28,769 bases of DNA from a virus (Duplodnaviria > Heunggongvirae > Uroviricota > Caudoviricetes). A model generated the notes under the pieces. The model made no database searches and had not been told where the DNA came from. It saw only the letters and a program-made list of their open reading frames with translations. Location of the stretch: the IMG/VR virus record IMGVR_UViG_2529292720_000011. One strand, given 5' to 3'. Position numbers and translations under genes: made by a program. This document shows positions 1-14,506 of the stretch, in pieces; within the stretch, counting starts at the first letter, position 1, and the number at the start of each line of letters is the position of its first letter.

Positions 1-1002
1 TTACCCTCTATTGTCAAAAGGGTTCAATTCAACAGCAGCCTCTAAATGACCTGGAGCAAAATGCGCATAACGCATAGTCATTTTTATATCGCTATGCCCC
101 AGTATTTTTTGCAACACAAGAATATTTCCGCCCCGCATCATAAAATGACTGGCAAACGTGTGACGTAGCACATGAGTTAATTGCCCATCAGGAAGCTCGA
201 TCTTCGCTCTCTTAATTGCAGCGTCAAAAGCCTCATAACATGGTGAAAATAGCGCTCCTCGTTTTTTAGGAAGCATAGCCTGCAATTGAGGTGAAATCGG
301 TACAGTGCGGTTCTTCTTTCCTTTAGTTTTAACAAATGTGATTCGACCGGGCAGTACTTGAGATTGCTTTAATCCTTCTGCTTCACTCCACCGAGCACCA
401 GTCGCAAGCCCAATACGGACAACAACCCCCAAATCTTTATTCCGTGACTCATCACACGCAATCAGAAGGCGTTCAATCTCATCTACATACAGAAACGCCA
501 GTTCCTTTTCTTCCTCACGAAACTTGCGAATACCAGTCAGGGGGTTTTCACCAGACCACTCCCCAAGGCGCTTCAGTTCGGCAAAAACAGCATGTAGATA
601 TGACTGCTCGCGATTAACGGTTGCTTCACTAAGTTTTTTCTTCCCCTTGGGATTCCATTCTCCTGATAGCCTTCTTTCCCGATAAGTAGCAAACATATTT
701 TTGTCAAACTGCGAAGCAAATGGATCTCCCAGCCTGGAACAAATCGCCTCAAGTTTGACTTTGCGCTCTGCACCAGAGGACAAGGTTTTACCGTACATCT
801 CAAACCAACGAGCAATCAACTCAGAAAGACGAGGACCAGAACCATCTTGAAACTCGTCTCCAACTCTACTATTCATTAAACGGCGCTCATAAGAGAGCGC
901 CTCACTTTTTGTCGCAAACTGTTTACGAATGCGTTTTCCCGATGCCCCGTAGGGATAACATTCGCAAAGCCATTTACCTGATGGAATCTTACGAACCGAC
1001 AT
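1..1002 (-). CDS. int: Tyrosine recombinase / phage integrase (P2/186-type)
   Basis: 333-aa ORF; C-terminal catalytic region ...LRHTFASHFMMRGGNILVLQKILGHSDIKMTMRYAHF... has the R..HxxR..Y signature of tyrosine recombinases; N-terminus MSVRK.PSG.W resembles 186/P2-type integrases. Stop codon sits at window positions 1-3, so att lies outside the window. Confidence 0.9.
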   Translation of the reverse strand: MSVRKIPSGKWLCECYPYGASGKRIRKQFATKSEALSYERRLMNSRVGDEFQDGSGPRLSELIARWFEMYGKTLSSGAERKVKLEAICSRLGDPFASQFDKNMFATYRERRLSGEWNPKGKKKLSEATVNREQSYLHAVFAELKRLGEWSGENPLTGIRKFREEEKELAFLYVDEIERLLIACDESRNKDLGVVVRIGLATGARWSEAEGLKQSQVLPGRITFVKTKGKKNRTVPISPQLQAMLPKKRGALFSPCYEAFDAAIKRAKIELPDGQLTHVLRHTFASHFMMRGGNILVLQKILGHSDIKMTMRYAHFAPGHLEAAVELNPFDNRG

Positions 1003-5815: not shown

Positions 5816-8623
5816 ATGACGGCAGAGTACATCAGGGACTGGCAGCAACCGCGCCACGCAGTGGGGCGTGAAGGAACGGGGATCCCCGCTCCTGAATCCG
5901 CGCTTTCCTCCTGGCTGGATGCCTACCGGGCAGAGAACGAGCGCTGCCAGGAAATGGCTGATGCGGCGTTCTCCGCCACGCCGCTGGGCAACCTGATTAA
6001 TAAAAGCCTGGACGCACAGGAAAAACAGGACAAAACCATCACACTGGCAGGAGACGCCAGAAAGCAGGTACGCGGCGCGGTGGATGAAGCCATGGCCTCG
6101 CTGCGCCTGCTGCCATCCTATCTGCGCGATCCGCTTATTCGCCACCTCTCCTTCCTGCGCAAAAAACAGGAATCTGACCGCCAGAAAGGTAAAAAGAACC
6201 AGCAGGCTGAACGCTACGCGCGCGGGACCCTGCGCAAAATATTCGAACGTCTGGATCGCACTGACGGGCGCTGGCTGACACCGGGTTATCGCTCCCTTGC
6301 CGGGCGCGAACGCCTGGACGATTTGCTTTCCCTGCCGCAGCTCAACAAGCACCAGATACAGACGCTGGCCACCATGACGGCGGCGATGTTCAGCAGCACC
6401 TTCGAAACACTCTGCGATGGCTTTGGTGCCAGAGATGGCGAGCTGACCATGGATGTAATGTTGAAGGCTTACCGGATGCTGGCCCGTATCGCATTACGCC
6501 TGCACATCATGCCGCCACATTACGAAGCCCTGAACAAGAGCGATCCGGATACGGAACTGTTACCGGGCGCAATCCTTCGCCTGACCTGTGCGGAATGGTG
6601 GAAACGCAAATTGTGGCTGTTACGTTGCGAGTGGAGAGAAGAACAACTCCGCGCCGCCTGTCTGGTTTCCAGAAAAACATCACCCTATCTGAGCCAGGAC
6701 GCGTTAAGCGAGTTTCGCGCACAGCGCGAGAAAACACGCGATTTCCTGAAAAGTTTCATGCTGGAAAACGAAGACGGGTTCACGATTGATCTCGAGACAG
6801 TGTATTACGCGGGAGTAAGTAACCCGGTTCACCGTAAGGCAGAAATGATGGCCACCATGAAGGGGCTGGAACTTCTGGCCGAAGCCCGTGGCGACAAAGC
6901 GGTGTTTCTGACTGTCACCTGCCCGTCAAAATACCACGCCACAACAGAGAACGGTCATCCGAATCCCAAATGGAACGGGGCCACCATGCGCGACTCCAGC
7001 GATTACCTGGTTAACACGTTTTTTGCGGCGGTCCGCAAGAAACTGAACCGCGACGGCCTGCGCTGGTATGGCATCCGCACGGTGGAGCCTCACCATGACG
7101 GCACCGTGCACTGGCATATGATGGTCTTTGCACATCCGGACGAGATTGAAACCATCGTGTCCCACGTCTGCGATATTGCCATTCAGGAAGACCGCCACGA
7201 GCTGGGCGATGACATAACTCCGCGTTTTAAGGCGGAGTACGTAGACGGCTCAAAAGGCACACCAACCAGCTACATCGCCACCTACATCGGAAAGAACCTG
7301 GACAGCCGCGCCGTGGATGGCATCGACCAGAAAACGGGCAAGCCACGCGTTGACCACGAAACCGGAAAATCAATGGCCGAGAGCGTGGAACGCGCCATCG
7401 GCTGGGCGCGCCTTCACCGGGTCCGCCAGTTCCAGTTCTTTGGCATCCCCTCCCGTCAGGTGTGGCGTGAACTCCGCCGCCTTGCCAGCCAGATGGCACG
7501 CAACCCGGAAGGCCCGCAACGGCTGAAGGATGACGCAATGGATGCGGTACTCGCTGCCGCTGATGCAGGATGTTTTGCCACCTACATAGAGAAACAGGGC
7601 GGCGTACTTGTTCCACGCAAAGACTACCTGATTCGCACCGCCTACGACCTCGCCGATGAGCTGAACGATTACGGCGAACAGAGCGTACAGATTTACGGGA
7701 TCTGGTCACCACTCATCGGGGAATCCTCCCGTGTGTGCACGCATCCGGATAACTGGAAGCTGGTAAGACGCAAACCGGAAGCGGAAGACAGCGCCCGCGA
7801 AAATGGTTTTGACCTTCAGGGCGGCCCTGCCGCCCCTTGGACTCGTGGCAATAACTGTCCCCGTGTACAGGAAACAGGCAACAGCGGGACAGAACAGTCG
7901 AAAGAACGGCCAGCACCGTGGCCGCAGCTTCCTGACGGCGTTGAAGTGAACGAATGGATGCGCTCACTGAAACGGCACGAACGCCGGGCGCTGATGCGTT
8001 CGCTTCGTGACAAACAGGTAAAAAACAGCAGTGATGAAATGCAGAGCTGGACACAGAGCCGCAAACAGCAGCGGCCTTTGCCTGATAACCACGAATTACT
8101 CGCTAAAGAATGGCGGGAGTCTGCCGAATCTCTCGGCCTGCATATCGGTGAACAGCAGATGCAGCACCTGCTACGGGGCGGCAGCCTGTACGTTGACGGC
8201 AGCATCATTGCACCGCAGGGATATGAAATTGTACGCAAACCGGATACCCGCCCGGACAGCCGAATCACGCAGCTCTGGCAGCACCTGAGCCGTAATCACG
8301 GCGTAAGCAGCACGGAGATCCGCCATAACCCGGTCGCCAGCTATCTGGCACAGCTGGGGGCATCAGACCCCGAAGCCGCCGCACGCCTGGCATCCGCACT
8401 TCAGCAGGATCAGAACACCATGAAAACACCCGTTACCGTGCTTTCTGACATGCTGCGCGCCATCCGCGACGCAGAGCACGCACAGAGAATCAGTGAAACC
8501 ACTGAACGCGCCAGCCGCAAAGCAGACCTGCTGCAGGGTGGCCTGACCAGTGGAAACAAAAAACAGACAGAAACGGGATCCACAAATCCCGTAAATGAGC
8601 AAAAAACGCGCCGCGATATATGA
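5816..8623 (+). CDS. A: Replication initiation endonuclease gpA (rolling-circle initiator, P2 A family), 935 aa
   Basis: Motifs VTCPSKYHA and TVEPHHDGTVHWHMMVF (HUH-type histidine motif) plus tyrosine-rich catalytic region; position after the early operon as in P2/186. Confidence 0.85.
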   Translation: MTAEYIRDWQQPRHAVGREGTGIPAPESALSSWLDAYRAENERCQEMADAAFSATPLGNLINKSLDAQEKQDKTITLAGDARKQVRGAVDEAMASLRLLPSYLRDPLIRHLSFLRKKQESDRQKGKKNQQAERYARGTLRKIFERLDRTDGRWLTPGYRSLAGRERLDDLLSLPQLNKHQIQTLATMTAAMFSSTFETLCDGFGARDGELTMDVMLKAYRMLARIALRLHIMPPHYEALNKSDPDTELLPGAILRLTCAEWWKRKLWLLRCEWREEQLRAACLVSRKTSPYLSQDALSEFRAQREKTRDFLKSFMLENEDGFTIDLETVYYAGVSNPVHRKAEMMATMKGLELLAEARGDKAVFLTVTCPSKYHATTENGHPNPKWNGATMRDSSDYLVNTFFAAVRKKLNRDGLRWYGIRTVEPHHDGTVHWHMMVFAHPDEIETIVSHVCDIAIQEDRHELGDDITPRFKAEYVDGSKGTPTSYIATYIGKNLDSRAVDGIDQKTGKPRVDHETGKSMAESVERAIGWARLHRVRQFQFFGIPSRQVWRELRRLASQMARNPEGPQRLKDDAMDAVLAAADAGCFATYIEKQGGVLVPRKDYLIRTAYDLADELNDYGEQSVQIYGIWSPLIGESSRVCTHPDNWKLVRRKPEAEDSARENGFDLQGGPAAPWTRGNNCPRVQETGNSGTEQSKERPAPWPQLPDGVEVNEWMRSLKRHERRALMRSLRDKQVKNSSDEMQSWTQSRKQQRPLPDNHELLAKEWRESAESLGLHIGEQQMQHLLRGGSLYVDGSIIAPQGYEIVRKPDTRPDSRITQLWQHLSRNHGVSSTEIRHNPVASYLAQLGASDPEAAARLASALQQDQNTMKTPVTVLSDMLRAIRDAEHAQRISETTERASRKADLLQGGLTSGNKKQTETGSTNPVNEQKTRRDI

Positions 8624-8699: not shown

Positions 8700-9659
8700 A
8701 TGAAAATTTGTATCGACGACGGCTCCACCAACATCAAGCTGGCATGGACTGAGAACGGCGAACGCCGCAACGCCATCAGCCCGAACAGCTTCAAGTCGGA
8801 ATGGTCTGCGCCGTTCGGTGGCACGCATCCCGCGAACTACATGCTTGATGGCGTGCGCTATGGCTTTGATCCGGTCAGCGATCGTTTTGTCCAGACGACT
8901 GACACGCAATACCAGTACAGCGATGTGAATGTAATCGCCATTCATCACGCGCTGGTCAAATCAGGCATCACGCCACAGGAGGTGGATGTGGTTGTCACCC
9001 TGCCACTGAGCGAGTATTTCGACACAAACGCACAGCCGGACATGGCCAACATCAACCGCAAAAAAGCGAACGTCATGCGCCCGGTGGAGTACCAGAACGG
9101 CGAAGCATTCACTATCCGTAACGTACGGGTTATGCCTGAATCCATTCCGGCTGGCTTTAAGGCACTGGCTGACATGAGTCCGTTTGAATCCCTGCTGATT
9201 GTGGATTTGGGCGGAACCACGCTGGATGTGGCAAAGGTTCAGGGGCAGCTGGCAGGTATCAGCCAGGTGTTTTGCGATCCAAACGTAGGCGTTTCCCTGA
9301 TGGCTGATGCCGTGCTGTCGGTGATGGCCACTAACGGTATGCGTACCAGTCACCACATCGCCAATACCATTATTGAGCACCGTCACGATGAAGCCTGGCT
9401 GCGCCAGCACATTCACAATGACGCGCATTACAACAGCCTGATGGCGGTTATTCGTGAAAAGGAGGAGACACTGAAACAACGAGTGATCCGCGCGCTGGCG
9501 GGTTTTTCCGGTTACGGGCGGGTGATGGTTGTCGGTGGAGGGGCGGAGATTGTGGCACCCGCTATCCGCGAAGCCTGCGGAGTTAATGCGACTTTCATCG
9601 CGGACGGGGTGCCACAGTTTGCTCTGGTTAATGGGCTGTACGCAATGAACAAGGAGTAA
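8700..9659 (+). CDS. parM: Actin-like segregation ATPase, ParM/StbA family
   Basis: N-terminus MKICIDDGSTNIKLAW...ISPNSFKSEW matches the R1 ParM N-terminus as recalled (MLVFIDDGSTNIKLQW...ISPNSFKREW); phosphate-2 LIVDLGGTTLDVA and adenosine VMVVGGGAEIV motifs present; 319 aa. Confidence 0.85.
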   Translation: MKICIDDGSTNIKLAWTENGERRNAISPNSFKSEWSAPFGGTHPANYMLDGVRYGFDPVSDRFVQTTDTQYQYSDVNVIAIHHALVKSGITPQEVDVVVTLPLSEYFDTNAQPDMANINRKKANVMRPVEYQNGEAFTIRNVRVMPESIPAGFKALADMSPFESLLIVDLGGTTLDVAKVQGQLAGISQVFCDPNVGVSLMADAVLSVMATNGMRTSHHIANTIIEHRHDEAWLRQHIHNDAHYNSLMAVIREKEETLKQRVIRALAGFSGYGRVMVVGGGAEIVAPAIREACGVNATFIADGVPQFALVNGLYAMNKE

Positions 9660-9663
9660 ACCA

Positions 9664-9975
9664 ATGACGACACCAACCAGAAGAATAAGTTTCTATCTGA
9701 AGCCAGCTGCCGTCAAGAACGAAGGAGAAGCATGCGCATGGCTGGACAGCCTTACACCAGAAGCCCGCAAAAGCGGCCAACGCGTGGCTTTTCTGGCCGG
9801 GCTGGCACTTCTGAAGACGAATCCGGCAGAGGCTTACCGACTGGCCGCATGGGCTGATGATGAGATGTTACCTGTGACACAAATCAGCTCAAAAAAGTTT
9901 GAAGCACAGTCTGCACCAGTGGCTAAGATAACCAGCCAGATGGCTGGGAATATCCGGGCGTTATTTCCTGGGTAA
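9664..9975 (+). CDS. parR: ParR-like RHH centromere-binding adaptor (103 aa)
   Basis: Immediately downstream of parM; RRISFYLKP...WLDSLTPEARKSGQRVAFLAGLALL...NIRALFPG parallels R1 ParR as recalled (RRTIAFKLNP...TLDSIPQGERSRL...ALTAGLALY...ILRSLFP). Confidence 0.6.
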   Translation: MTTPTRRISFYLKPAAVKNEGEACAWLDSLTPEARKSGQRVAFLAGLALLKTNPAEAYRLAAWADDEMLPVTQISSKKFEAQSAPVAKITSQMAGNIRALFPG

Positions 9976-10102: not shown

Positions 10103-10131
10103 CTTGACAGTAATGTGCCTTTTTGTAAGAT
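10103..10131 (+). promoter_or_regulatory. Candidate sigma70 promoter
   Basis: TTGACA, 17-bp spacer, TAAGAT (TTGACAgtaatgtgcctttttgtAAGAT). Confidence 0.35.
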
Positions 10132-10339: not shown

Positions 10340-10609
10340 GTGCGGGCTAAAACAGGTATTTGCAAGAACCCTCATCGTTATAACCCAACATTTCTGTCTC
10401 TCCCTGAATATCAAGGACAAGAAGGTCGGCACAAATGCGCTGCCTGTGCTTTTGAGCTAGGCATAAAAGATGCGCTTGAAGGACGCGCTATGGCTCAGAA
10501 TGATTTAGTTTTAGCTAACATTCCGTTTAGCCAGGCTGGAACTGTAAGGCACAGAGATGCTTATGAAGCATATGTTAGTGGTTGGCGATTAATACACAGC
10601 AACAATTGA
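10340..10609 (+). CDS. Hypothetical small Cys/His-containing protein (89 aa)
   Basis: GTG start with GAGG 8 nt upstream; C-x(3)-H ... H-K-C-A-A-C pattern may form a small zinc-binding knuckle; followed by a strong terminator. Confidence 0.5.
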   Translation: MRAKTGICKNPHRYNPTFLSLPEYQGQEGRHKCAACAFELGIKDALEGRAMAQNDLVLANIPFSQAGTVRHRDAYEAYVSGWRLIHSNN

Positions 10610-10616
10610 TATTTTT

Positions 10617-10642
10617 GAAGCGCCGATAAGGCGCTTTTTTTG
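10617..10642 (+). terminator. Rho-independent terminator
   Basis: gaagcgcc-gata-aggcgc stem-loop followed by TTTTTTT. Confidence 0.65.
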
Positions 10643-10643
10643 T

Positions 10644-10673
10644 TTGCACGATAGTGCACAAGTTTGCACAATT
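10644..10673. repeat. Three direct repeats of TTTGCAC/AGTGCAC with 10-bp periodicity (iteron-like)
   Basis: tttgcacgat / agtgcacaag / tttgcacaat read directly; a fourth GTGCAC at 10736-10741. Confidence 0.5.
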
Positions 10674-11169
10674 TTTTTGAACGACTTTTTGTACTTCCGG
10701 CCCGCGTGGCGGCTGGATCCGTCAAGGATCCGTACGTGCACAAAAAACGCGTTTTTTCTACGCGCAGGTGACGGGGGAACAGCCCGCGTTTCAGGGGGTA
10801 AATAGCATTCCCTGAACGATGTCGCAGAGACACAACAGAATGGCCATATTTCTCACGCTGAGCATGAAAAAGGCGTGAGGGCTTTTGATTTGATGGGGGG
10901 AAAGGTAAGGCCGTCAAAATCGCACTGAGGCAGCGAGAACATACAGTCAACGTGGTGGGATTGCGTAAGAGTCTGACCGTCGATGGTGGCGATAAACTGG
11001 AAGGCGTCGTGAAATTATCTGATTGATACAGGAGCTGGAGAGTCGGGGCATAAATTTTTTATGCCCCGGCGAAGCAGCAGACAAGCGAAGCGCGTCAGCG
11101 ATACGGCACCTTGCCGACCATACTTCGTAAGTGCAAAATACGAGCAAAGAAATCAATGGAGGCTGTCTT

Positions 11170-11694
11170 ATGGTCATTAATTACAAGCAGTTAAGAGAAA
11201 AACGGGAGCAGGTAAAGGAGAGCTTTCGCCGCAATGAAGATCTGACCCCGCTTGTACGCCTTGCCCAGGGCATTGTTGATGCTTATGAAATCTCGCTGGA
11301 GCTGCCATCACAGACCTGGACAGATAGCGACGGTAATCGCCAGCATTACGTTTCATGCGGACTGGAAGCAGCCGAAGGATTTCGCAGAATGCCTTTATCT
11401 CAGATCCCTGCCGCTACCCCCAAAGCAAGGGGCGGCAATGATGAGCGAAAACTGATTTTCAGCATTGAGACAGTGGTTGACGACACACCTGGCGAAGTCG
11501 CCTTCGTGCATACTCCTCTTTCGATCGCAATGTATAACGATGAAATACAGGTTCGCGTTAATAATAATATCGTGCCACTTAAAGAAGGTAATTCACCCTA
11601 CACCACCGTTTGTGAAGCCATTCAATATTACGTTTTCTCTGAAATTGATAATCTCAAGCCTGACGGCACCCAGAAAATGGTTCAGCTCTGGTAA
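11170..11694 (+). CDS. Hypothetical cargo protein (174 aa from ATG 11170)
   Basis: GGAGG 7 nt upstream of ATG 11170 (ORF track starts at 11131); convergent with portal gene; no motif recognised. Confidence 0.5.
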   Translation: MVINYKQLREKREQVKESFRRNEDLTPLVRLAQGIVDAYEISLELPSQTWTDSDGNRQHYVSCGLEAAEGFRRMPLSQIPAATPKARGGNDERKLIFSIETVVDDTPGEVAFVHTPLSIAMYNDEIQVRVNNNIVPLKEGNSPYTTVCEAIQYYVFSEIDNLKPDGTQKMVQLW

Positions 11695-11726
11695 AAAGGA
11701 CAGCCCCATCACGGGGCTGTTTTTTC
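11693..11726. terminator. Bidirectional intrinsic terminator between convergent genes
   Basis: AAAAA-ggacagcccc-atca-cggggctgt-TTTTTT; overlaps the last codons of the portal gene. Confidence 0.6.
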
Positions 11727-12755
11727 ATCAAGAAGAGCATAAGAGTTAAAACGGATCACCTCTTCGCCAAGCCAGTCATTGATGTGCTTCATGGCCTCCA
11801 TAACGGGCATCAGCTCGTTAATTGCGTAAACCCGCGCGGCCTTCTCCACATCACCAAACGCACTTTTTTCGCCCGGCATCGCCCCCATCAGTTGCGGCGG
11901 AACACGGTGCGCAGCCAGCACATCATCACGGGATGCCGCCTTAACATTCATGAACTCATCTTTTGCGGTGATCTGCTGGAACGGCAAAATTTGCACCCCC
12001 TCTTTGCCCCCGTTGGGCGCATGAATGAGCACGTTTTTAAACGCACCACCACCACGTGCCCCCTGTAGCGTTTCTTTCAGGGAGTCCATGCTTTCGCGGT
12101 TTACCTGCGCTGCACCGATGTAGATGATGCACCCGGCGTGGGATCCGTTGTCGTAGTACAGTTTTCTGAACATGTCCGCCGAATGAGAAAGGCTGGCCGA
12201 GAGTAATGCGCCAAGATATTCCGGCATGCCGTAGATTTCCTGGTTAATATCCGGATTCATCAGGTGGCACACTTTGCCAGGACGAAACTGAAACGCGTCC
12301 TTGCCATCCTGCACATACCACCATGATTCAAGATCGCTTCCGCGTCGCATGTATTTCGCCAGGGCGTGCCGTAATTTAAGCGGTTCGCCGAGCATATTGC
12401 TCCGAAGCTCAAGGAATGCGTTACCGAACACAAACCAGTCCAGCGCCAGCGCCGAGAAATCCTGCCGGGAAAGCAGCGGGTGCGGAATATAGCAGCCGAG
12501 CAATACATTGCGCTTAAAGTAAAGCGCAGACTGATGCCAGGACGTTTGCCGGGCAGCTCTTGCCAGACCGTACCAGTCCACCGGGGTTTCATACCACCGC
12601 CCGTTATCAGCACAGTACATATTGTCCAGCAGGTCATGCCCGGTCAGGCGATAAGGACCATCAAATGTGAATGCACTGAGCGATGATTCTTTCCTGAGCG
12701 CATCAGCGAGATCAATGCGTGAACTCATGCGCACTTTTTTATTTTTTCTGCTCAT
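11709..12755 (-). CDS. Q: Portal protein gpQ (P2 Q-like)
   Basis: 348 aa (P2 Q about 344 aa as recalled); adjacent to and co-oriented with the terminase large subunit. Confidence 0.8.
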   Translation of the reverse strand: MSRKNKKVRMSSRIDLADALRKESSLSAFTFDGPYRLTGHDLLDNMYCADNGRWYETPVDWYGLARAARQTSWHQSALYFKRNVLLGCYIPHPLLSRQDFSALALDWFVFGNAFLELRSNMLGEPLKLRHALAKYMRRGSDLESWWYVQDGKDAFQFRPGKVCHLMNPDINQEIYGMPEYLGALLSASLSHSADMFRKLYYDNGSHAGCIIYIGAAQVNRESMDSLKETLQGARGGGAFKNVLIHAPNGGKEGVQILPFQQITAKDEFMNVKAASRDDVLAAHRVPPQLMGAMPGEKSAFGDVEKAARVYAINELMPVMEAMKHINDWLGEEVIRFNSYALLDEKTAP

Positions 12756-14506
12756 CAGAACTCCATAACCGTGAAACGCTCGTTTTCTCCTTCGCCGCCA
12801 ATCGGTTCATTAATGACAGCAAGCATGGTTGCCCACGCAAGGTCGCCGTGGCTGATCCCCCTCGCTCGGTCCGTTTCGTAAGTGATAAAGCCGCCCGGTG
12901 TTTTCACCTTACGCACGGCGTTAAAGGCCGCGACCAGCTCGCGTTCGGCACGATCGTATTCCCACCGCCCGGCACGCATTATTTGCAGCATTTTCAGTAC
13001 CAGCGACCGTTTTGATGACAGCGTGAAGGTGTACGGAATAGCAGCAGGGAAAAACCGTTTCACTATCTGATAAACGGCATCCCCGTGCCCGCCAGTCGCA
13101 TCAATGCCGATGTGTTCCACGTTGTAGCGACACGTGAACTCTTCAATGACTCTGGCCTGTTCTTCAAACTCCAGCCCCTGAACGCGTCGCGTCTCCACCG
13201 TTCGAAAACGGCCACCAGGAACAGCCGGAGGAACCACCACGGACACCGCGCCGCTGTCGCCGTTTCCACTGCTGCCGTTTGCGTCATACCCAATCCATAC
13301 CGGACGATTCCCCATCGGGCGGGGAGCAAAAGGTTTCCAGTCTTTCCAGTCGTCGTATCCATCAACACCGCAGCCAATCAGGATATTCAGGTTAAATGCC
13401 GATTCCCCTTCGCGGACAAACTCACACATATAGAGATTGCGGAACTCGTCTTCGGTGTTTTCATCACGAATTTCATCAATATCGGTGTGTTTCCAGCCGT
13501 GATTAACCACATCTTCCAGCGTGACAATTTGCCGCCACGTCCGGTCGGGGCAGATAAGTCCGTTATGCAGCGTTTTCCAGTCCACAGAAAAACGCTGGCG
13601 TTTATGCGCGGCCTTTTTCTCGTTCCAGCGGTCGCCGTTCCAATAGACGTATGCCTCGTGCGTTTCGGTGGATGGCGTGGAGAAGTAGGTGCGCCGCAGT
13701 CCGCTGAGGGTTGCCATAGCGCCAGCCACCTTGCGCAGTTCAGCAAAGCGACTGACCCAGAAAAATTCATCAAAATAAAAATTGCCTGTGTAGGACTGTG
13801 CCGTCGCAGCAGAAGTACCGAGAAAATGCAGTTCTGCGCCGTTGGAGAGGATGATTTTATCGCCCCCTTTCAGCTCCACATCAACTTCAGCCGCGGCCTT
13901 CTGAATAATGCTTTTAAACTGGAACGCCTGACGACGCGACGCAGACAAAAAAATCTGGTTACGCTGGTAAGGTTGTGCCACATCGTCACGCAGCGCCATC
14001 AGCAGTGCTTCCTGTGCAAAATACCAGGTCGCCCCAATCTGTCGGGATTTCAGGATCATCCTGTTACGTATCCCGGCTTCACTGCAAAGGGTCAGGGAGT
14101 CAAACCAGCCCCGCTGATGCCACTCCAGCCTGCTGATGATTTTTTCCCGCAGTGCGGCAATCTGCTCCGGCGTGAAATGATTTTTAAGTTTTTTCGCCCG
14201 GCCTTTCTTTCCTGTGGCCGTCGCATCCGGCTGGCCATCATGCAGTTTTTTAAGCTGCCGGGTCAGCAGGTCTATTTCCTTAAAGTCACCACCTGTTTTA
14301 TTCTGTTTTTCAGTAAGCTGGATGAGGCGCGCATCGATGGACTGCGTGACACGCTGCACGGGGGGCGTTTCATCCCACTGGTCGCGTTTTTTCCACGCAT
14401 AAATCGTGTTCGGGTTTATTCCCATCAGACGTGATATTTCTGCGGGCGGATAACCCTGCCAGTAAAGTTGCCGCGCACGCTGGCGCACAAAAGCGTCCTG
14501 AATCAT
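12755..14506 (-). CDS. P: Terminase large (ATPase) subunit gpP
   Basis: 583 aa; N-terminal MIQDAFVRQRARQLYWQGYPPAEISRLMGINPNTIYAWKKRDQW is typical of P2 gpP; divergent from the capsid operon. Confidence 0.9.
   Translation of the reverse strand: MIQDAFVRQRARQLYWQGYPPAEISRLMGINPNTIYAWKKRDQWDETPPVQRVTQSIDARLIQLTEKQNKTGGDFKEIDLLTRQLKKLHDGQPDATATGKKGRAKKLKNHFTPEQIAALREKIISRLEWHQRGWFDSLTLCSEAGIRNRMILKSRQIGATWYFAQEALLMALRDDVAQPYQRNQIFLSASRRQAFQFKSIIQKAAAEVDVELKGGDKIILSNGAELHFLGTSAATAQSYTGNFYFDEFFWVSRFAELRKVAGAMATLSGLRRTYFSTPSTETHEAYVYWNGDRWNEKKAAHKRQRFSVDWKTLHNGLICPDRTWRQIVTLEDVVNHGWKHTDIDEIRDENTEDEFRNLYMCEFVREGESAFNLNILIGCGVDGYDDWKDWKPFAPRPMGNRPVWIGYDANGSSGNGDSGAVSVVVPPAVPGGRFRTVETRRVQGLEFEEQARVIEEFTCRYNVEHIGIDATGGHGDAVYQIVKRFFPAAIPYTFTLSSKRSLVLKMLQIMRAGRWEYDRAERELVAAFNAVRKVKTPGGFITYETDRARGISHGDLAWATMLAVINEPIGGEGENERFTVMEF

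Follow-up and report, generated by a model that had tools for sequence, protein, structure and literature searches.

The stretch of DNA analysed here (hereafter the window; 28,769 nucleotides (nt), IMG/VR record IMGVR_UViG_2529292720_000011) is a P88-type P2-family prophage of the genus Xuanwuvirus, and between its replication gene A and its portal gene Q, the location of the gpA-gpQ hotspot, it carries a plus-strand gene for a 174-amino-acid (aa) protein. This gene is real and functional, is under purifying selection and is a dispensable insertion/deletion polymorphism, and it is very probably an autonomous, non-structural moron. An earlier note on this DNA, made from the sequence alone, had proposed a moron or a defence or anti-defence effector, and the moron proposal is supported by presence/absence polymorphism, a terminator of its own, a conserved promoter-like site and a lower guanine plus cytosine (G+C) content. 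As read from the DNA, the layout is that of a classical moron, with a predicted promoter-like site, a ribosome-binding site (RBS), one open reading frame (ORF) and a terminator. A part in phage-phage or phage-host conflict appears fairly probable, and it is tentatively suggested that the product may be a non-enzymatic exclusion or defence factor expressed by the prophage.

A one-gene cassette within the end of portal gene Q

The elements of the cassette and of the two junctions are as follows.

11044 to 11068, no strand assigned: perfect 11-base-pair (bp) hairpin CGGGGCATAAA/TTTATGCCCCG with an AT-rich loop, corresponding to the former Q 3' end region in P88
11095 to 11097, minus strand: remnant, reading tca on the plus strand, of the stop codon that ended the ancestral Q, marking the left cassette junction, from the comparison of the window with P88
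11099 to 11726, no strand assigned: inserted cassette of about 630 bp, delimited by the comparison of the window with P88, two-piece megablast matches, genome counts and G+C content
11111 to 11139, plus strand: weak promoter-like site with 8 of 12 consensus matches, consisting of a -35 element TTGCCG (11111-11116), a 17-nt spacer and a -10 element CAAAAT (11134-11139)
11158 to 11162, plus strand: Shine-Dalgarno sequence GGAGG, with a 7-nt spacer to the ATG
11170 to 11694, plus strand: coding sequence of the 174-aa protein, a member of PHROG 5091, soluble and acidic (isoelectric point (pI) 5.0, 19.8 kDa)
11695 to 11725, no strand assigned: bidirectional intrinsic terminator with five A residues (A5, 11695-11699), a GC-rich stem of 8-9 bp (11700-11720) and six T residues (T6, 11720-11725)
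11709 to 12755, minus strand: portal gene Q (348 aa), whose last codons (..LLDEKTAP*) are supplied by the cassette terminator

Direct reading of the sequence placed the coding sequence between the ATG at 11170-11172 and the TAA at 11692-11694. The mechanical ORF list begins in the same frame at a GTG at 11131, which would give 187 aa, and this start was rejected, being neither conserved nor located outside the promoter-like spacer. Every homologue opens with MVINY or MTVNY at the position of the ATG, and upstream of the GGAG, itself invariant in the alignment of relatives, their sequences diverge; ATG 11170 is therefore the right start. Both this start with its GGAGG RBS and the bidirectional terminator shared with Q had been proposed in the earlier note and are borne out here.

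Regarding transcription, the promoter-like site falls below the threshold of the consensus scan (9 of 12 matches) and was not called by it. Its -10-like element ends 30 nt 5' of the ATG, and the motifs CTTG and CAAAAT, together with their spacing, are invariant across five loci, the aligned proteins being 97, 84, 63 and 60% identical; in the two most diverged of the five aligned loci, the upstream sequence is unalignable apart from CTTG, CAAAAT and GGAG. This conservation suggests that the site may work as a promoter, and the layout of the cassette would be suited to expression in the lysogen. On the other side of the gene, the terminator stem is ACAGCCCC/GGGGCTGT (11700-11720), and since it is flanked by A5 and T6, the terminator should be able to halt transcription from either side. 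The 174-aa gene and the Q-P operon converge on this terminator and share it. The relatives with 60-84% identity all have a hairpin with a T-run separating the gene from the portal gene, and the stems differ (AGCCCC/GGGGCT versus GGCCTG/CAGGCC).

Comparison with phage P88 located the insertion within the end of the portal gene. The order in P88 is ...GGGGCATAAATTTTTTATGCCCCGGCGAAGCAGCAGACAAGCGAAGCGCG-TCA (the Q stop codon)-GGATGTGGGCTGGGTATC..., and the left flank of the window is identical to P88, including this TCA, up to 11098, with the similarity returning at about 11727 within Q. The left junction is thus located just past the relic stop codon and the right junction inside the last codons of Q, and because the match breaks and resumes at these positions, it is concluded that the last five codons and the stop codon of Q have been replaced by the cassette. 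Accordingly, the C-terminus of the portal protein reads ..LLDEKTAP* in the window versus ..LLDTQPTS* in P88. The portal stop codon (11709-11711) is located in the terminator loop, and stem and T-run together spell the last six codons (D-E-K-T-A-P). The convergent portal ORF ends 14 bases past the TAA of the 174-aa gene. In this way the cassette brought a new terminator for the Q-P operon, and the hairpin at 11044-11068, which in P88 lies about 25 nt beyond the Q stop codon at the position of P2 tQ, is here stranded 5' of the cassette. The G+C content is 47.5% in the cassette versus 53.1% in Q and 53.8% in P.

Occurrence, selection and protein family

The presence/absence comparison across related prophages, a check suggested in the earlier note, revealed a polymorphism with clean junctions. 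The gene was detected in four of 16 related phage records, and the other 12 matched the flanks in two pieces (megablast). Among 5426 complete E. coli genomes, 397 (7.3%) contained the cassette, in all cases on the chromosome and adjoining a 'phage portal protein', and the conserved left flank was present in 1101, indicating that about one-third of P88-type prophages carry it. Neither phage P88 nor P2 has the gene; in P2 the distance from cosL to Q is 186 bp and only tQ is present. It is common in the ST131, O55:H7 and O111 pathotypes.

Purifying selection was evident from the ratio of nonsynonymous to synonymous substitution rates (dN/dS, Nei-Gojobori), which ranged from 0.07 to 0.21 in every pair with estimable dS and from 0.11 to 0.21 where pairs were not near synonymous saturation. 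Specifically, values of 0.11-0.12 were obtained against the ST131 and PhiR44_2 alleles, 0.17-0.21 against the 84% relative and 0.19 between two Salmonella-type alleles; the protein divergence covered was 3-40%, with synonymous sites saturated in the deeper pairs. Insertion sequences actively remodel the locus. In E. coli SEC470 (NZ_CP007594.1; L009 4076-5216), an IS1 is located within an otherwise 100% identical copy of the gene. In a prophage of ST131 (L008 2094-3206), an IS421 was observed in the upstream cargo.

The earlier note had taken the gene for the last cargo gene of an island. Instead, it is an independent cassette in a fixed slot inside the Q 3' end, found behind at least three different annotated upstream sets as well as behind none. 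The same gene follows an 89-aa ORF (WP_001390707) in the window, O55:H7 DEC5A and 2013C-4361; DUF4760, a hypothetical gene and the IS421 in ST131; four hypothetical genes in PhiR44_2; and no annotated cargo at some loci. Among the relatives with 60-84% identity, DUF3800, helix-turn-helix/Peptidase_M78 or YafO-toxin genes are located upstream, and the convergent portal gene is 15-38 bp away. Moreover, a degenerate-motif scan of IMG/VR recovered 53 loci, of which 52 encoded a homologue, and at 42 of these a convergent P2-type portal gene lies 0-128 bp downstream, whereas the interval to StabB/gpA ranges between 1.0 and 4.1 kb. The gene has already been catalogued as 'hypothetical', both in PHROG 5091 and in a survey of P2 hotspot cargo, where its ST131 variant WP_000236495 is given in Table S5 (Rousset et al. 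2022, PMC9122126). At least 167 loci with the gene are listed in the table of that study, and the gene does not figure among the systems assayed there, its Table S2 and main text containing no entry for DUF4760 or StbA (Rousset et al., PMC9122126). Since its companions among the hotspot cargos change freely, the 174-aa gene does not belong to the multi-gene 'system' with which it was binned, and the listed arrangement is a concatenation of separate modules.

The protein itself (GRAVY hydropathy score -0.48) has no hydrophobic or membrane segment and no signal peptide, and the acidic pI is a family trait (median 5.1, all below 6.6). It matched phrog_5091 ('unknown function') with E=1.4e-66, residues 1-168 aligning to positions 1-164 of the 164-position profile, and this profile was matched by all 57 aligned relatives. 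The statement of the earlier note that no motif could be recognised holds, as searches of Pfam, NCBIfam and PADLOC (PADLOC-DB 2.0) with the protein gave no match; a Pfam Complex1_LYR hit at E=0.18 was dismissed as noise. Likewise, the 57 relatives matched no Pfam family and gave only two isolated PADLOC matches (E about 0.005-0.009), and the Pfam search of the protein and its relatives detected no effector-like domain (nuclease, NADase, pore or protease) and no DNA-binding or enzymatic domain. Furthermore, Pfam, NCBIfam and the annotated PHROGs showed no relation to any conserved structural or packaging protein of P2, a relation that would have spoken against the earlier proposal, and the protein is neither structural nor packaging.

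A word-indexed search returned only proteins of E. coli, Salmonella, E. albertii, Yersinia and Trabulsiella, all 'hypothetical', and a search for related loci with the shallow alignment of close relatives gave only 2 species representatives. An exhaustive profile search extended the family to 87 matches, with about 60 full-length representatives, 155-175 aa long and 21-32% identical, which share the motifs Y-x2-S-L-x-L-P-x2-T-W-x-D-x2-G-x4-Y-V, F-x-I-x-T-V-x-D-D-x-P and V-C-x-A-I-K. The invariant residues are Y39, S42, L43, L45, W50, Y60, F97, T101, D104-D105 and C148. Partial copies of the gene are also present in the databases. Structure prediction had likewise been suggested earlier. The AlphaFold2 model built from the 57-sequence alignment was confident (predicted local distance difference test (pLDDT) score 82, predicted template modelling (pTM) score 0.72), with N-terminal helices at residues 5-22 and 26-42, an antiparallel sheet at 49-135 and a C-terminal helix at 145-159; no significant fold match was obtained, Foldseek against PDB and BFVD returning nothing at E<=0.001 and nothing good enough to assign a fold family. 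PDB sequences searched with the 57-sequence profile gave no match, and the matches of a shallow profile to designed helical-repeat proteins (E down to 4.7e-10) were considered spurious because they vanished with the 57-sequence profile. Neither homology nor fold allows a function to be transferred, and membership in PHROG 5091 says nothing of function, since this family is without a name, a Pfam entry, a structure or a phenotype. A literature search by accession or PHROG identifier found no paper discussing the protein.

The distant family members occupy recurrent positions in other temperate phages. At eight of the ten non-P2 IMG/VR loci, the gene precedes lysozyme and Rz on the same strand by 389-721 bp, follows the late antiterminator Q, or both, and the same lysis/antiterminator-Q slot is used in phage CharmingMan and contig L004. 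Three members in lambdoid prophages, located between the late antiterminator Q and holin/lysozyme/Rz, illustrate this arrangement.

L045, 4766 to 5296: family member with its own terminator
L026, 5624 to 6187: family member with its own terminator
L019, 4980 to 5510: family member with its own terminator

In distant homologues of lambdoid prophages, the terminator lies 20-48 bp past the stop codon, and a promoter-like site is located just upstream in two of three. The lambdoid antiterminator Q-lysis slot also houses stx in Stx phages and other virulence morons. In addition, the family member at one locus is located between the lysis genes and terminase, and at two loci it belongs to accessory islets inside myovirus tail modules, co-oriented with them and adjoining HicAB, Arc and Ant genes. 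Trabulsiella guamensis (L005 8001-10053) harbors a 47%-identical homologue right after gpA, followed by HicB-like and Phd/Fic toxin-antitoxin genes; this was the only P2-type locus seen that does not abut the portal gene, on a contig that ends before the portal. No conserved partner gene was found in about 15 diverse contexts. The gene was detected in five of 50,697 phage records and two of 72,556 plasmid records, and its distribution over moron slots together with its near-absence from plasmids indicates a temperate-phage-specific, single-gene mobile cassette. The cassette, with its putative promoter, resembles the characterised lambdoid morons (in the Juhala/Hendrix definition; e.g., HK97 gp15 and lambda bor/lom), which are promoter-gene-terminator units placed among conserved genes, absent from close relatives and deviant in base composition, although most of them are membrane or surface proteins, whereas the 174-aa protein is cytoplasmic and acidic.

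Candidate roles of the protein

The cassette is most probably transcribed on its own in the lysogen from a putative weak sigma-70-type promoter, and under the exclusion reading its product, a small, soluble, acidic, non-enzymatic alpha+beta protein, would act as a stoichiometric binder. The target may be one of the proteins of an incoming competitor phage or a host factor on which this phage depends, and the development of the competitor would be blocked, following a logic like that of P2 Tin or phi80 Tai. The binding mode of action and the anti-phage phenotype are both predicted, and exclusion is favoured because the promoter/terminator layout fits expression in the lysogen, the hotspot holds tin/old and protective cargos, and the protein is binder-like. 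Of all systems cloned in one study from the P4 and P2 hotspots taken together, more than one-third conferred defence (PMC9122126).

The tin/old 'TO region' of the cos-proximal gpA-gpQ hotspot (Odegrip 2006; Rousset et al. 2022, PMC9122126) is likewise located between gpA and gpQ and variably present. Tin, too, is a single protein; it is expressed in the lysogen and is not known to contain a catalytic domain. In the P2 record, it is described as a nonessential lysogenic-conversion protein blocking the growth of T-even phages. No similarity between Tin and the 174-aa protein was found (hhalign probability 0.3%). Tai (tail assembly inhibition; e.g., phi80 orf63, taiEcA) offers an instructive second parallel, being a single-gene, domain-less defence that was missed by PADLOC and DefenseFinder, resides mostly at moron loci of temperate phages that adjoin the packaging module, is transcribed in opposition to the late operon, and in the case of phi80 taiEcA was inactivated by an insertion sequence when costly (He et al. 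2024, PMC11364771). Similarly, the 174-aa gene is near the packaging module, opposes the late operon and is invisible to PADLOC, and the IS1 in SEC470 recalls the insertion in taiEcA; it differs from Tai in that no adjacent Ati-like partner was seen. The ORF at the orf63 position of phi80 (204 aa, minus strand; assigned to orf63 from gene order) showed no similarity to the 174-aa protein (hhalign probability 0.05%), nor did its neighbour show homology.

Several observations weigh against exclusion. The PADLOC search of the protein and the 57 relatives returned only its two marginal matches, and no effector-like domain was present in the family. Many defence genes move between element types, and this family is phage-only, nearly absent from plasmids and not seen in any non-prophage context. 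Moreover, the lambdoid and tail-module members are co-oriented with late genes, which would also suit a role in the lytic growth of the phage itself, and the promoter-like site is so weak that the scan did not call it. The chief alternative is counter-defence, in which the protein would bind and neutralise a host immune protein or sequester its signal, thereby protecting prophage induction and lytic growth, possibly against a system triggered by late proteins (portal, terminase or capsid). A small, acidic, soluble, non-enzymatic protein without a known domain is typical of anti-defence proteins, and the restriction of the family to phages and its absence from defence catalogues agree with this, as do the lambdoid copies at the head of the late operon, the two myovirus contigs with a copy inside the tail module and a weak fold resemblance to immunity and Acr-type small alpha+beta proteins. 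Nevertheless, this explanation is considered rather doubtful, given that a private terminator and promoter-like site within late operons suit expression in the lysogen better, the P2-type slot is convergent with the late Q-P operon instead of inside it, and no aca-like regulator adjoins the gene. In addition, very few recognisable anti-defence genes were reported for P2-like prophages in a 2026 survey (PMC13586616), which is hardly informative on uncatalogued families.

Another lysogenic-conversion or regulatory role, acting on a host pathway, stress response or virulence, or on the lysis-lysogeny decision together with Ant/Bro/KilA-type proteins, appears unlikely. The moron architecture would suit any gene of benefit to the host, and the abundance of the gene in ST131, O55:H7 and O111, the use of the lambdoid antiterminator Q-lysis slot by stx and virulence morons, and the occurrence of Ant (P22_AR), Bro-N and KilA-N proteins next to distant members would all be compatible with it; however, a surface or secreted virulence role is made improbable by the missing signal peptide and membrane segment, and neither a DNA-binding or enzymatic domain nor a gene partner conserved across contexts was detected. 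A head-assembly or packaging accessory, such as a portal-associated or packaged protein, would explain the fixed portal-side position, the gene adjoining the portal gene in 42 of 42 P2-type IMG/VR loci, as it does in relatives with as little as 60% identity. Its absence from P2, P88 and about two-thirds of P88-type prophages, its disruption by IS1 in SEC470, its convergence with the portal operon under a promoter-like site of its own and the lack of any structural PHROG or Pfam annotation make such an accessory very improbable, as does the fact that lambdoid siphoviruses and other myoviruses, whose portals are unrelated, carry family members at a great distance from the portal gene. Finally, truncated or partial database copies and the IS1-disrupted copy are what a functionless hitch-hiker would leave, i.e., a decaying remnant kept by linkage to the portal gene, and this is hardly credible in view of dN/dS values of 0.1-0.2 across the divergence covered, the survival, in lineages of both Salmonella and E. 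coli, of the reading frame with its RBS, promoter-like motif and terminator, and the size and diversity of the full-length family.

The exclusion reading thus retains its tentative preference, and it is possible, albeit doubtful, that PHROG 5091 is the founder of a new single-protein mechanism of immunity or counter-immunity that is temperate-phage-specific, acts by protein binding, has a fold without relatives and occupies dedicated slots. The cos-proximal P2-like hotspot is a proven reservoir of anti-phage genes, much of whose cargo is still 'hypothetical', and the 174-aa gene is among its commonest unexplained pieces in complete E. coli genomes, including the pandemic ST131. As an autonomous one-gene cassette under purifying selection that recurs in moron slots of unrelated temperate phages, it represents a clean target for assays. 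If a defence or anti-defence role holds true, a new non-enzymatic family would be added to the catalogue, with a bearing on the phage susceptibility of clinically important lineages; if there is no such role, the gene would be an ordinary orphan moron.

Prophage setting and the predicted cos region

The best megablast matches of the window, at 94-97% identity, were Escherichia phages PhiR44_2, vB_EcoM-569R5/705R2 and P88 relatives. The further features of the prophage are listed below, and the gene order after the 174-aa gene is Q, P, O, N, M.

1 to 1002, minus strand: integrase
5816 to 8623: replication gene A
8700 to 9975: ParM/StbA-like actin and Plasmid_stab_B partition genes, directly after gene A
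10340 to 10609, plus strand: 89-aa ORF (RefSeq WP_001390707.1), hypothetical, with a C-A-A-C motif
10617 to 10637: strong terminator of the 89-aa ORF
12755 to 14506, minus strand: large terminase P

About one-quarter of P2-like phages have such a putative partition system and may persist as plasmids (Rousset et al. 2022, PMC9122126). The 89-aa ORF is the sole annotated cargo here between the partition genes and the putative cos (cohesive-end) site, i.e., in the classical variable region, and promoter-like sites were noticed on both strands (10104-10131 and 10307-10279).

In the P2 record, cosL occupies positions 1-19, tQ 160-181 and Q starts at 187, with tin and old at the opposite end of the linear genome. 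The P2 cos 19-mer has no copy in the window, and local alignment detected no significant match to the P2 cos junction within 10560-11110, so the position of cos is proposed indirectly. The linear P88_4B11 record begins at the equivalent of about 10690, and three TGCAC repeats were found at 10642-10672. Moreover, GCGTGGCGG at about 10706-10714 resembles the P2/186 cohesive-end core. The cos region is thus probably located near 10.64-10.72 kb (10640-10725). Were cos located there, the cassette would be on its Q side, apart from the classical variable region, and the 174-aa gene would come first at the left end of the virion DNA. In this respect, the cassette, with its fixed slot inside the Q 3' end, apparently differs from P2 tin/old, probably being on the other side of cos from the tin/old-type variable region.

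A 42-codon frame (10898-11026) between the predicted cos region and the cassette corresponds to a small gene that the annotations of P88, PhiR44_2 and SEC470 list as hypothetical. In the window its GTG start has become GGG (T to G at 10899), with no break in the frame, and this is probably either no real gene or one inactivated in the window.

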